From a virus (lineage: Duplodnaviria > Heunggongvirae > Uroviricota > Caudoviricetes): a DNA stretch of 14,139 nucleotides. Every line of letters starts with the position of its first letter. Position 1 is the first letter of the stretch. Of the stretch, positions 9,001-14,139 are shown one piece after another. The stretch lies in IMG/VR virus record IMGVR_UViG_2703718861_000003. One strand, given 5' to 3'. The position numbers are program-made.

Positions 9001-12000
9001 GTCCAACCATTGAGCCAGGAGATCTCATCTTCGTTGATATCAGTATCAATCAGTTTGATGGGGATGGTATATATGTATTTGGTTTTGATGATAAAATTTA
9101 CGTCAAACGACTGCAAATGATACCTGATAAACTGCTGGTAATTTCTGATAATCAGATTTACCGCGAATGGGGAATTACCAGCGAAAACGAACATCGGTTT
9201 ATGGTCTTTGGAAAGGTCTTAATCAGTCAGTCACAAACCCTTAAGCGACACAATTAACCCCCTACCTCAATATCAATTAGCCACCAGAAGGTGGCTTTTC
9301 ATTACTCACCAAATTGCATATCTCGCAATAAAAACACTTGCATAATGCGCAACTTCATTTTATCTTTCTTTCCAGACATACAAACAAGGTACTAACAAAA
9401 TTTGGTTGTAACACGGCGTATGGCACATGCGTCGTTAGCGGTCTGGGGACGTTAAAGGGGACAATCCACTCCTTGCTCGGGCAAACAAACCAGGTAGCCG
9501 GAATGTGCAAGTCAATGATGATGCTGATAAGACGCCTAACCAGCGTGGCGGTTCGGTTTGACACCTGGGAAGAGACCAGGGTGCAACGATGAGGGCATTT
9601 ATGGAACCGCGACAAAGTGTGGTGCCGTAACTGGCTAAGTGCTCTCAGCGTTGTGGTGAATGCGCAGGCTGATGCGCGAAAGACATTGCAGCTATTGCGG
9701 AAAAGAGCTGTTCGGCGGGGCAATTAAACGCCCGTGAGAGTCTGAAATAACCGCAAGCCGGAGATCAGCACCGGTCACCACAACAGCCACTGCTTTGGCG
9801 GTACCAGTTTGTACACTTGCTTCCGGCTGGTACCGCTCTTTTTACAAAACAGAGAAGAGCATCACCGGACGACGGGCTCATAACCCAATCCATCCGGGCG
9901 GCTGCCACCGCAGGTGTTCTTCTCTGTTTTGTGGAGAAACCAACCGACCTTGCAGGGTCGATATGATGAGGAGCAACAAAATGGCTAGCGAACGCAGTAC
10001 TGATGTGCAGGCATTTATCGGGGAGCTGGACGGCGGCGTATTTGAAACAAAAATCGGCGCAGTTCTCAGTGAAGTCGCTTCCGGTGTGATGAACACGAAA
10101 ACCAAAGGTAAGGTCTCGCTCAACCTGGAAATCGAACCGTTTGATGAGAACCGTGTGAAAATCAAACACAAACTCTCATATGTTCGCCCGACTAACCGCG
10201 GGAAAATTTCCGAAGAAGACACCACCGAAACGCCGATGTATGTCAATCGCGGTGGTCGCCTGACTATTCTGCAGGAAGACCAGGGACAATTACTGACTCT
10301 TGCCGGTGAGCCTGACGGAAAACTCCGCGCAGCAGGTCATTAATATCGTTCTTAATTAACTGATTATTTATCTCATCACTGAATATCTTAATATAGTGAG
10401 GACTTATTATGTCTCAGAACTTAGACGCAACCGCAATTAATCAAATCCATGCCCTTATTTCTGCTCAGGGTGTTAATGAAATTATCAGTAAGATTGGTGC
10501 CGACGCAGTGGCATTACCTGAAAATTTCCGCATTCATGATCTGGAAAAATTTAATTTAAATCGCTTCCGTTTCCGTGGTGCGCTTTCCACTGCCAGCATC
10601 GATGACTTTACCCGTTATTCTAAAGATCTTGCAGATGAAGGCACCCGCTGCTTTATCGATGCCGATAATATGCGTGCCGTCAGTGTGCTTAACCTGGGTA
10701 CTATTGATGAACCAGGTCACGCAGATAACACCGCCACTCTCAAACTGAAAAAGACAGCACAGTTCTCTGCTCTGTTGTCTGTTAACGGCGAGCGTAACTC
10801 CCAGAAGTCACTGGCAGAATGGATTGAAGACTGGGCCGACTACCTTGTGGGCTTTGATGCTAATGGTGACGCCATTCAGGCAACAAAAGCGGCTGCGGCA
10901 GTCCGTAAAATCACAATTGAAGCGAACCAGACTGCTGATTTTGAAGACAATGACTTCAGCGGCAAACGCTCCCTGATGGAGTCTGTCGAAGCGAAGACCA
11001 AAGATATTATGCCAGTGGCATTTGAATTTAAATGCGTTCCGTTTGAAGGTCTGAAAGAACGTCCATTTAAATTACGCCTCAGCATTATCACTGGCGATCG
11101 TCCTGTACTGGTTCTGCGCATTATTCAGCTGGAAGCAGTGCAGGAAGAAATGGCTAACGAATTTCGTGATCTGCTTGTTGAGAAATTCAAAGACAGCAAA
11201 GTAGAAACCTTTATTGGTACTTTCACCGCCTGATTTCATTACTGCAAATGCTCCTGCGGGGGCATTTATGGAAACGTAATTAACTCAATAATCGCCGGAT
11301 GGTGCGGGATTCCTTTTACCCGAATTCAGCGCGGTGCAGCGCATATAAAGTGGAGAACGAAATGTCATTTATTAAAACTTTTTCCGGGAAGCATTTTTAT
11401 TATGACAAGATAAATAAAGACGACATCGTGATTAACGATATCGCGGTTTCCCTTTCAAATATCTGTCGCTTTGCAGGACATCTTTCACACTTCTACAGTG
11501 TCGCCCAGCATGCGGTGCTTTGCAGCCAGCTGGTGCCGCAGGAATTTGCTTTTGAAGCGTTAATGCATGATGCAACAGAAGCGTATTGCCAGGACATCCC
11601 CGCACCACTGAAACGACTTCTTCCTGACTATAAACGGATGGAAGAAAAAATAGACGCCGTAATCCGTGAGAAATACGGGTTACCTCCTGTTATGAGCACG
11701 CCAGTGAAATATGCCGATCTCATCATGCTGGCAACCGAACGCCGCGATCTCGGACTTGATGATGGCTCTTTCTGGCCTGTATTGGAAGGTATCCCGGCAA
11801 CAGAGATGTTCAAAGTGATTCCACTGGCACCGGGCCATGCCTACGGGATGTTTATGGAACGCTTCAACGAGTTATCGGAATTACGCAAATGTGCATAACT
11901 CATGTAGTTAGTTTTTCTGGCGGGAGAACATCTGCATATCTTGTTCACCTGATGGAAGAACAAAGAAAGGCTGGCAATAACGTCTGCTACATCTTTATGG

Positions 12001-14139
12001 ATACCGGTTGCGAACATCCGCTGACATACCGCTTTATTCGGGAGGTTGTGAAGTTCTGGGGCATACCGCTAACTGTGTTGCAGGTCGATATAAATCCAGA
12101 GCTTGGGCAGCCAAATGGTTATACGGAATGGGAACCAAAGGATATTCAGACGCGAATGCCGGTGCTTAAACCGTTTATGGACATGGTTAAAAAGTACGGT
12201 ACGCCATACATCGGCGGCGCATTCTGTACTGACAGGCTAAAACTCACCCCTTTCACGAAATATTGCGATGACCATTTTGGGCGAGGGAATTACATCACAT
12301 GGCTGGGTATTCGTGCGGACGAACACCGTAGGCTGAAACCGAAACCGGGCGTCCGGTATCTTGCCGAGCTGTCAGATTTTGATAAGTCGGATGTTATCCG
12401 GTGGTGGCGTAAACAACCTTTTGATTTGCAAATCCCGGAGCACCTCGGGAACTGTGTTTTCTGCATCAAAAAGTCAACGCAAAAGCTGGGGATCGCATGT
12501 AAAGACGAACCTGGTCTGATGCGGGTTTTTAATGAACTGGTTACAGGCAAACACGTCCGGGATGGTCATCGCAGAACAGGTAAAGACGTTATGTACCGTG
12601 GTCACCTGACGCTTGACAGGATTGCCAGAATGTATGCCGACAGCGACTACAGAAGTTTGTATCAGGCGATGGTGCTGGCCAAGCGGTTTGATACTGGTTC
12701 GTGTTCCGAATCATGTGAAATCTGGGGTGACCAATTGGAGTTGAAATTCGAAGAGGTAGTGGCATGACAATCGTAAAAACCCATACCGGTACCGTGATCA
12801 CCAAAGATGGACCGCAGGTAAAAAAATTGCACCAAACAGAACGGATGTGGGTCGTCGGCAAAAACGAGTTTTACCACAAAGAAACTGGACGCCGCCACTT
12901 TGCAGAAAATACGCGCCGCCGACTGCTGTTAGACACCATCAAGCCTATCGAGGTGAAGCATGTTTAAACAGAACGAAAAAGCTATCGCTCAAATTGCTGA
13001 TTATATCCCGCGTGCGTGCCGGGGTATGCAGTTGCAGGAAGCCAAAGCGCGCCTGGAGAAAAAAATTGCGCTCTATATCGATGACGGCTGTGATGCTGCC
13101 GTTCTTAACGCAGCGTTCGCGCCAGCTCTTAACAGTCATACGCGGGAGTCTTTTTTTTCGTGCATCGCAGCGCAGATCCGCAAAGGAGGCAACCAGTGAG
13201 CAAGATTGACTATCAGGCACTGCGTAAAGCGGCGCAACTGGCAACACAGGGTGAATGGGTCGCATTTATTTCGTCTGGTACTGGTACATATGCGGTGCAT
13301 ACACCTGGTGATAAACGATGTGAAGACGTTATCAAATGGACCGGCTTTGATGGACAGAACAACGCAGAGAACAACGCTCGTTATATCGCAGCTTTCAACC
13401 CTGAAGTAGTGCAGGCGCTGCTGGATGAACGGGAAAGAAACCAGCAATACATCAAACGCCGTGACCAGGAGAACGAGGATATTGCGCTTACGGTTGGGAA
13501 GCTGCGCGTTGAGCTTGAAGCAGCAAAATCAAAACTCAACGAGCAGCGCGAGTATTACGAGGGAGTTATCTCTGATGGGTGCAAGCGTATTGCTGAACTG
13601 GAAGCGCGGGAAGTTCAATTACCGACTCGCTACGACCTTCGATATGGACACCCGATAAATGCAGATGAGCGACAAGTCATGATACCTAAAGAAAATGGCA
13701 GTTGGCTTTACCTGATTGACCTAGAACACGCATTACGCGTCGCTGACATTCGCATCAAAGGAGAGTGATATGGNNNNNNNNNNNNNNNNNNNNNNNNNNN
13801 NNNNNNNNNNNNNNNNNNNNNNNNNNNNNNNNNNNNNNNNNNNNNNNNNNNNNNNNNNNNNNNNNNNNNNNNNNNNNNNNNNNNNNNNNNNNNNNNNNNN
13901 NNNNNNACTGGCGATTCTTTATTAGTGAGCCGGAAATTATTTCAGTTGAGGATTTACCTCCCGGCTGGGGATTACTTCACGTTGTTAACGGAAGAGTACG
14001 GAAAGTACATGGATGGCCCAGGGGTAATTGCTGTTGGGGTAATCCTGACGATAAGCCATTTACCGGGAATAAGCAGGTTGAATGCGATTACATGTTATCT
14101 GCATTAAGGCGCATGGAGTTGAGAGGGCACCTTAATGAA

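Follow-up and report, generated by a model that had tools for sequence, protein, structure and literature searches.

An open reading frame (ORF) of 292 amino acids (aa) on the plus strand of IMG/VR virus record IMGVR_UViG_2703718861_000003 (Caudoviricetes), at positions 11889-12767 of a stretch of 14,139 nucleotides (nt) that was analyzed as a whole and is called the window here, is by full-length similarity a member of the NinC family of phage lambda. NinC has been without an assigned function since the lambda genome was sequenced, and our literature search found no paper showing what the protein does. Members of the family were found fused to DNA adenine methyltransferases, and one fused relative has a published anti-Dnd phenotype. 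We give about an even chance to NinC being a DNA-directed counter-defense enzyme that is linked to adenine methyltransferases and acts early in the lytic cycle.

A translated search of phage genomes aligned residues 2-292 of the protein, which has an ATG start and opens MCITHVVSFSGGRTS, with lambda Nin290 (NinC, lambdap64) at 78% identity (E = 4e-161), and the protein also matched phrog_424 (E = 8e-93). The similarity extends over the full length (290 aa in lambda, 292 aa here) with all conserved motifs kept, and in both cases the gene is a non-essential accessory gene of a lambdoid phage. The two differ in location: lambda ninC is a nin-region gene of the pR operon, in the order ninB-ninC-ninD, whereas the gene in the window is part of the pL operon and is flanked by yfdR and orf67. 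Its pL position implies early lytic expression, and from the gene order it should be silent in the lysogen. NinC was present in 545 of 5,426 complete E. coli genomes (~10%), plasmids of about 92-97 kb included, and in 608 phage records; a large protein collection held more than 5,000 NinC clusters at 90% identity and 361 at 50% identity (E < 1e-30). An identical protein is already in RefSeq, so the copy described here is an ordinary member of a known family, and its sole novelty is its pL location, a case of ordinary lambdoid mosaicism. An earlier note on this DNA had placed the protein outside sulfur assimilation and favored DNA modification or anti-restriction, and that part of its reading stands; it had not recognized the identity with lambda NinC, and its suggestion that two small downstream ORFs are functional partners was not sustained.

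Link to DNA adenine methyltransferases and a possible role in Dnd evasion

Close homologues of NinC were found fused to phage Dam (PF05869) in proteins P0082, P0117, P0118 and P0119. Both domain orders occur: NinC precedes Dam in P0117 and P0082 and, in a wider profile search, in P0122, P0126 and P0151, and that search also gave P0121 and P0123, in which Dam precedes NinC. A further protein from the wider search, P0132, joins NinC to a D12-class adenine methyltransferase (PF02086), a family unrelated to PF05869. NinC-Dam fusions also make up phrog_33262, in which positions 2-279 match the NinC of the window (E = 4e-89). These independent fusions to two methyltransferase families provide the strongest computational evidence that NinC may act on DNA, either with adenine methylation or in its pathway.

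The NinC ORF of the window ends at residue 292 and contains no methyltransferase domain. A phage Dam N6-adenine methyltransferase is predicted on the minus strand at 3868-4554 (RefSeq start at 4521; PF05869, E = 6e-45); it matches the C-terminal half of phrog_33262 (positions 283-492, E = 2e-96) and shares 28% identity with the Dam domain of P0117. By these profile matches, the two halves of the fusion are present in the window phage as individual genes. The fusion of such a domain to NinC in other phages makes the window Dam a possible partner of NinC in trans. The best PHROG match of the window Dam, phrog_33262, is labeled 'PAPS reductase' (PAPS, 3'-phosphoadenosine 5'-phosphosulfate), since its members are NinC-Dam fusions; the label is also found on Dam-only genes of Chi-like Salmonella, Aeromonas and Proteus phages, apparently for the same reason.

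Methyltransferase genes were also identified close to NinC homologues. A methyltransferase adjoins the NinC homologue in Burkholderia phage vB_E184 and Riemerella phage CRP12, and lies one gene downstream in Vibrio phage VchM-138. When short catalytic motifs ([DNS][PC]P[YFW] and PC[QH]x[FYW]S) were used as an approximate means of detection, 13 of 56 viral-locus clusters (90% identity) had a methyltransferase-motif ORF within 1 kb of the NinC homologue, compared with 3, 5 and 2 such ORFs in the next three 1-kb bins, for which a similar amount of flank was available. This enrichment, roughly threefold in the first kilobase, is no more than suggestive.

A phenotype has been published for a single family member, p0018 of Vibrio phage 44E38.1, described as a 'Dam methyltransferase with PAPS reductase domain'. 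This protein is P0117, a NinC-Dam fusion, and is 55% identical to the window NinC over 96% of its length; the likeness covers the N-terminal 280 residues and includes all conserved cysteines. Replacement of the counterparts in a Dnd-sensitive phage with p0018 and p0019 of 44E38.1 yielded a recombinant phage that escaped Dnd restriction and reached 10^11 plaque-forming units (PFU)/ml on a Dnd-carrying host, in a study of Vibrio crassostreae phages (bioRxiv 10.1101/2021.05.05.442762). The Vibrio and window arrangements differ in two respects. In p0018 the PF05869 Dam domain is part of the same polypeptide, whereas in the window Dam is encoded apart from NinC, at a distance of ~7.3 kb and on the opposite strand; and the phenotype was obtained together with the second gene p0019 (DUF6475), which has no counterpart in the window. 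The HD-domain gene upstream of NinC was considered as the counterpart of p0019 and was rejected, as the two share no similarity and p0019 belongs to DUF6475.

According to a 2026 preprint, Dnd evasion is promoted by a phage PAPS reductase, and such genes are placed there in anti-defense operons. The 44E38.1 study is probably the source behind this statement; a Dnd paper (mBio 2023) was rejected as its source because PAPS is not mentioned there. The motifs recognized by Dnd systems can coincide with GATC, the Dam site (mBio 2023).

Conserved motifs and proposed mechanism

NinC contains the PP-loop motif SFSGGRTS that the earlier note had reported (aa 8-15; 11910-11933, plus strand), which is predicted to bind ATP/pyrophosphate and places the protein in the PP-loop ATP-pyrophosphatase superfamily. 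The motif follows strand 4-8 of the structure model, and the model has the Rossmann-like alpha/beta/alpha core of solved superfamily members. Conservation was examined in two alignments (A1 and A2), with distant homologues from Chi, Vibrio, Riemerella and Burkholderia phages. Residues S10, G11, G12 and S15 of the PP-loop were invariant down to 22% identity in both, and the full set of positions invariant down to 22-28% identity comprised SGGxxS, T-G-x-E (in a DTGxEH motif conserved over the same range), C113, K118, G140, R142, C192 and C272/C276.

The cysteines lie in three places. Cys113 (12225-12227) starts a helix spanning residues 112-130 and was invariant in both alignments; judging from the motif C-x-x-R-x-K-x-x-P, its position may resemble that of the first cluster cysteines of adenosine 5'-phosphosulfate (APS) reductase. 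The pair C189-x-x-C192 (12453-12464) is part of a conserved GNCxFCxKK motif, in which C192 was invariant and C189 was kept in 7 of 8 distant homologues. The C-terminal pair C272-x3-C276 (GSCSESCE; 12702-12716), also invariant in both alignments, lies in a flexible tail (predicted local distance difference test score, pLDDT, < 50 for residues 266-292). Based on these motifs, we infer that NinC is an active PP-loop enzyme of the ATP-pyrophosphatase type whose cysteines would suit an Fe-S cluster or a persulfide relay; alternatively, they may form a zinc site, with one catalytic cysteine besides. A search of PDB sequences with the C-terminal 203 residues alone gave no match. The N-terminus weakly matched PptA (PDB 21fy chain C, 270 aa; E = 0.61), which carries SCGAPS where NinC has SGGRTS and has N-C-x-x-C-x-K in common with it (NNCVGCVKGG vs GNCVFCIKKS); PptA, on which the literature search gave no paper, may be the nearest solved relative of NinC.

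The branch of the superfamily that contains NinC also holds the PAPS/APS reductases, DndC, SspD and BrxP. The last three are the sulfur-inserting components of phosphorothioate systems and work with a host or dedicated cysteine desulfurase. In the hidden Markov model (HMM) classification that the earlier note had proposed as a check, NinC passed the Pfam PAPS_reduct threshold and partially matched SspD, and missed the NCBIfam cut-offs for both cysH and DndC. SspD was the best match in the PADLOC defense library (E = 1.8e-15; NinC residues 5-148 against profile positions 2-121 of 277), followed by weaker matches to BrxP (E = 1.2e-4) and DndC (E = 7.7e-4); the score for the NCBIfam DndC model TIGR03183 was 14.3 against a cut-off of 290.4. 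NinC thus shares with DndC, SspD and BrxP the PP-loop, the superfamily branch and conserved cysteines, but falls far short of the family cut-offs, its SspD match covers the N-terminal half only, and the C-terminal half, which bears GNCxFCxKK and GSCSESCE, is peculiar to NinC. The likeness to DndC and SspD lies in the branch and probably in the chemistry, and NinC is likely a member of neither family. The DNA-binding or nicking partner that those systems require (DndE, SspB, DUF4007) was not found in the 14-kb window or in the inspected flanks of related loci.

In the counter-defense role considered here, NinC would work with a Dam-type N6-adenine methyltransferase or in the same pathway. The PP-loop would first spend ATP to adenylate, and so activate, a position in DNA (a backbone phosphate or a base). 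The conserved cysteines, arranged as a 4Fe-4S cluster or as a persulfide relay that host IscS supplies, would then deliver sulfur, and the resulting mark would let phage DNA escape phosphorothioate-dependent (Dnd-type) restriction. The mark could be sulfur at sites set by the Dam-type partner, so that phosphorothioate-sensing restriction would read the DNA as self. Of these elements, the anti-Dnd effect comes from the literature and applies to the fused homologue only; we infer the sulfur chemistry and an activity of the unfused NinC of E. coli and lambda. DNA modification or anti-restriction was the best supported of the functions offered in the earlier note, through the methyltransferase fusions and the genetics of the 55%-identical fused homologue; the host-defense role that it had listed beside them did not hold up.

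Several points weigh against a counter-defense role. The Vibrio experiment moved two genes jointly and used a fused protein, and our literature search gave no biochemical activity or DNA product for any NinC-family protein. A stoichiometric mark is hard to reconcile with the wide use of lambda DNA as an essentially unmodified standard. The ninC gene of lambda is dispensable, and a two-hybrid map gave no protein partner of NinC. A P-loop NTPase beside the PAPS-reductase-like protein is required in all four established phosphorothioate systems; no such NTPase (DndD/SspC/BrxC) was found in the 14-kb window or in the inspected flanks of related loci. Methyltransferases are only modestly enriched near NinC, and the location of both genes in the same accessory regions could explain part of this. 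Lambda has NinC without a phage Dam and mEp460-like phages have Dam without NinC, so the pairing is not obligatory. Finally, Dnd systems have been reported to restrict lambda, though wild-type lambda carries ninC (mBio 2023).

Alternative functions of NinC

A bolder form of the DNA-modification proposal is that stand-alone NinC is a minimal, single-protein writer of a DNA sulfur mark, which would be a phosphorothioate or else a thio-base at Dam-type (GATC-like) sites. Such a writer would need no P-loop ATPase; a Dam of phage or host would give it site specificity, and host IscS would supply the sulfur. We regard this as fairly improbable. If it were true, wild-type lambda and about one tenth of E. 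coli prophages would carry an overlooked, low-level DNA sulfur modification as counter-defense.

NinC could also perform sulfur-free, ATP-dependent adenylation chemistry on DNA or protein, with the cysteines forming a structural zinc site. Amidation or hypermodification at or near Dam sites would be one example, and protein-nucleobase conjugation like that of the QueC-family proteins Cap9 and QatC another. This is improbable, as the nearest sequence relatives of NinC are in the sulfur-handling PAPS-reductase/SspD/DndC branch, C113 is invariant beyond the four cysteines able to bind zinc, and no amidotransferase or nitrogen-donor domain was fused or adjacent to NinC in the inspected loci.

Thiolation or other modification of RNA (e.g. 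tRNA), as carried out by TtcA, TtuA/NcsA, MnmA and TilS, would tune translation or shield tRNAs from host anticodon nucleases. The fold matches cover only the common core of ~160 residues at 12-16% identity, and no tRNA-binding domain was recognized in Pfam and NCBIfam scans. The fusions join NinC to DNA methyltransferases, not to RNA enzymes, and the sole recorded phenotype concerns a DNA-based defense. An RNA substrate is consequently quite unlikely.

In virome studies, phrog_424 ranks among the phage genes most frequently labeled a sulfur auxiliary metabolic gene (AMG), namely cysH, and some recent studies build ecological and health arguments on this label. NinC would then be a CysH-type PAPS/APS reductase making sulfite for cysteine synthesis in the infected cell. 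The label has some basis in sequence and structure: the Pfam PAPS_reduct match is above its cut-off (36.9 vs 22.5 bits), the best fold matches include the APS reductase 2goy (24% identity), and the cysteine layout (a Cys, a CxxC and a Cys-bearing flexible tail) loosely recalls APS reductase. The Pfam match, however, covers residues 5-72 only (E = 4.7e-9), and in PDB sequence and profile searches the alignment with CysH/APS reductase was limited to residues 4-70 (up to 4-99 with a profile). Alignment of the NinC profile with E. coli CysH stopped after the first ~64 columns, so the NinC cysteines cannot be mapped onto the cluster ligands of APS reductase; over residues 47-121 the CysH query sequence matches that of PDB 1sur. 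Scores for the NCBIfam cysH models were far below the cut-offs (PRK02090, 20.3 vs 154; TIGR00434, 13.1 vs 165.1).

The motifs differ as well. NinC keeps the canonical SGGxxS, whereas the CysH sequences compared carry SSSFG. The catalytic cysteine of CysH lies in the C-terminal motif ECGLH; the C-terminus of NinC reads GSCSESCEIWG... instead. Compared with solved CysH-type structures (PDB 1sur, 2goy and 6vpu), similarity ends at about residue 70-100. The earlier note had named clear orthology to an assimilatory PAPS reductase among the findings that would together overturn its reading, and no such orthology was found by HMM classification or alignment. Repeated fusion to DNA methyltransferases would make no sense for sulfate assimilation, the E. 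coli host already encodes cysH, and the virome papers themselves say that the function is untested. Because every defining feature of CysH that was tested failed, 'PAPS reductase' is a superfamily label only for NinC, which is not a sulfate-assimilation enzyme; a true AMG is very improbable. Taken together, the failed CysH tests, the intact PP-loop, the repeated methyltransferase fusions and the anti-Dnd activity of a fused relative indicate that the AMG label is probably wrong. The NinC family probably belongs to the DNA modification arms race between phage and host, a role that is open to direct study in lambda and E. coli.

A role as a prophage defense gene that shields the lysogen, as a modification component of an Ssp-, Dnd- or BREX type 4-like system, has only a very small chance of being correct. 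It draws on the PADLOC matches to SspD, BrxP and DndC, and a 2026 preprint lists a nucleoid-protein defense cluster paired with a PAPS reductase. Against it, the gene lies in the pL operon 3' of the repressor, a gene order that would keep it silent in the lysogen, and no restriction or effector partner was present in Pfam, NCBIfam, PHROG and PADLOC scans. Virulent phages such as Chi, as well as Vibrio podoviruses, carry homologues, and the experimental evidence points to counter-defense. This role was rejected on the operon position and the homologues in virulent phages.

Small ORFs and genomic setting

The ORFs downstream of NinC encode proteins of 67 aa (orf67; 12764-12967, plus strand; phrog_1226, E = 2e-42) and 79 aa (orf79; 12960-13199, plus strand; phrog_1344, E = 5e-53). 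Reading of the sequence confirmed the three ORFs and the overlapping starts described in the earlier note. The NinC and orf67 reading frames meet in an ATGA at 12764-12767, and an overlap of 8 nt (12960-12967) joins orf67 to orf79; Shine-Dalgarno-like purine runs precede orf67 (GAAGAGG, 12750-12756) and orf79 (GAGGTGA, 12950-12956). The flanking genes overlap in the same manner, with the upstream HD-domain gene ending at 11898, 10 nt inside the NinC ORF, and the downstream Ead/Ea22 gene starting with a GTG at 13196 that overlaps the orf79 stop (GTGA, 13196-13199). Tight coupling is for this reason a trait of the whole operon and not of the three ORFs.

Comparison with homologues identified 44 synonymous and 13 non-synonymous codon differences for NinC, and 12 and 2, respectively, for orf67. 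The pattern for orf79 was mixed, with 16 synonymous and 9 non-synonymous differences in the most divergent comparison and 1/5 and 4/5 in closer ones. Taken with the PHROG matches (E = 8e-93, 2e-42 and 5e-53), these codon differences identify all three ORFs as real genes rather than chance ORFs.

Synteny was compared across 82 related loci, in which orf67 and orf79 always co-occurred, as they also did in the mEp460 and Klebsiella settings. The linkage of the pair to NinC was not conserved. The pair was absent from about half of the loci with NinC 93-96% identical to that of the window, and from every locus with NinC at or below 81% identity, lambda included. It also occurs without NinC, behind an SfV orf29-like gene in mEp460 and behind a ParB-like gene in the replication region of Klebsiella phage 5 LV-2017. 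In the Stx2a_JNE phages (LC7278xx) the pair follows a NinC remnant made up of its last 54 codons, which points to a recombination junction inside the gene. The orf67 family comprises 125 clusters, all from Enterobacteriaceae and none with an informative name or domain, compared with more than 5,000 for NinC (~40-fold). By this distribution, orf67-orf79 is an independent mosaic module whose genes are neighbors and not partners of NinC.

A three-gene functional unit is accordingly extremely improbable and was rejected on synteny: the overlapping starts on one strand and the joint occurrence of the genes in many Stx phages and some plasmids of ~92-97 kb speak for it, but the pair is missing from about half of the closest NinC loci and all more distant ones, stands behind other genes or a NinC remnant elsewhere, and belongs to a family of very different size. 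The NinC-orf67-orf79-ead block was observed on the E. coli plasmid p779-3 (97 kb; 4996-6785 of locus L206). There were 74 plasmid places in the complete E. coli genomes, and the plasmids of about 92-97 kb that carry the block may be phage-plasmids.

By gene content, the window corresponds to the immunity and early genes of a mosaic lambdoid prophage, in the opposite orientation to the lambda map. The minus strand encodes a Q-like antiterminator, DUF968/HNH, KilA-N and RusA proteins, a LexA-like repressor, the phage Dam, a PerC-like activator, replication genes, a Rha-like regulator, and cII-like and cro-like genes. A CI-like repressor is encoded on the plus strand at 8565-9257 and is followed on that strand by yfdP, yfdQ (DUF2303), yfdR (HD-domain 5'-deoxynucleotidase), NinC, orf67, orf79 and ead, with xis and int continuing the operon in a matching prophage of Shiga toxin-producing E. 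coli (STEC). The placement of the genes in an early-left region was therefore correct.

The YfdQ-like DUF2303 protein (10409-11233, plus strand) and the YfdR-like HD-domain 5'-deoxynucleotidase (11299-11898, plus strand; phrog_318, E = 2e-111; Pfam YfdR-like, E = 3.6e-5; yfdR in RefSeq) form a pair directly upstream of NinC, an arrangement as in the CPS-53 prophage of E. coli K-12. An HD-domain (yfdR) gene lies 5' of NinC in many, not all, close NinC loci. Three small plus-strand ORFs of the early-left region (9338-9592, 13770-13925 and 13925-14107) had no PHROG match, and the first of these, between the repressor gene and yfdP, had no Pfam match either. A 7-bp GC-rich hairpin, AGCCACC-AGAA-GGTGGCT, was identified at 9279-9296, just 3' of the CI-like repressor gene, and has a terminator-like score on both strands.

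No phage record covered more than 73% of the window, the nearest being 1720a-02, phiSTEC1575-Stx2k and mEp460. A 100%-identical NinC gene was found between yfdR and ead in an STEC chromosome (STEC2018-607 prophage). In that prophage a replication gene is annotated as an incomplete pseudogene (7115-7504 of locus L207), and its counterpart in the window is an intact 327-aa ORF (5012-5995). Because the replication gene is intact only in the window, the window is not simply the STEC2018-607 prophage.

Genes of nucleotide metabolism were also observed near distant NinC homologues. A nucleoside 2-deoxyribosyltransferase-like DUF7768 gene lies just downstream of the homologue in Salmonella phage Chi (3873-4334 of locus L086), and a MazG gene lies just downstream of that in a Riemerella phage (4446-4742 of locus L088). 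These neighbors echo the HD nucleotidase gene upstream of NinC in the window.

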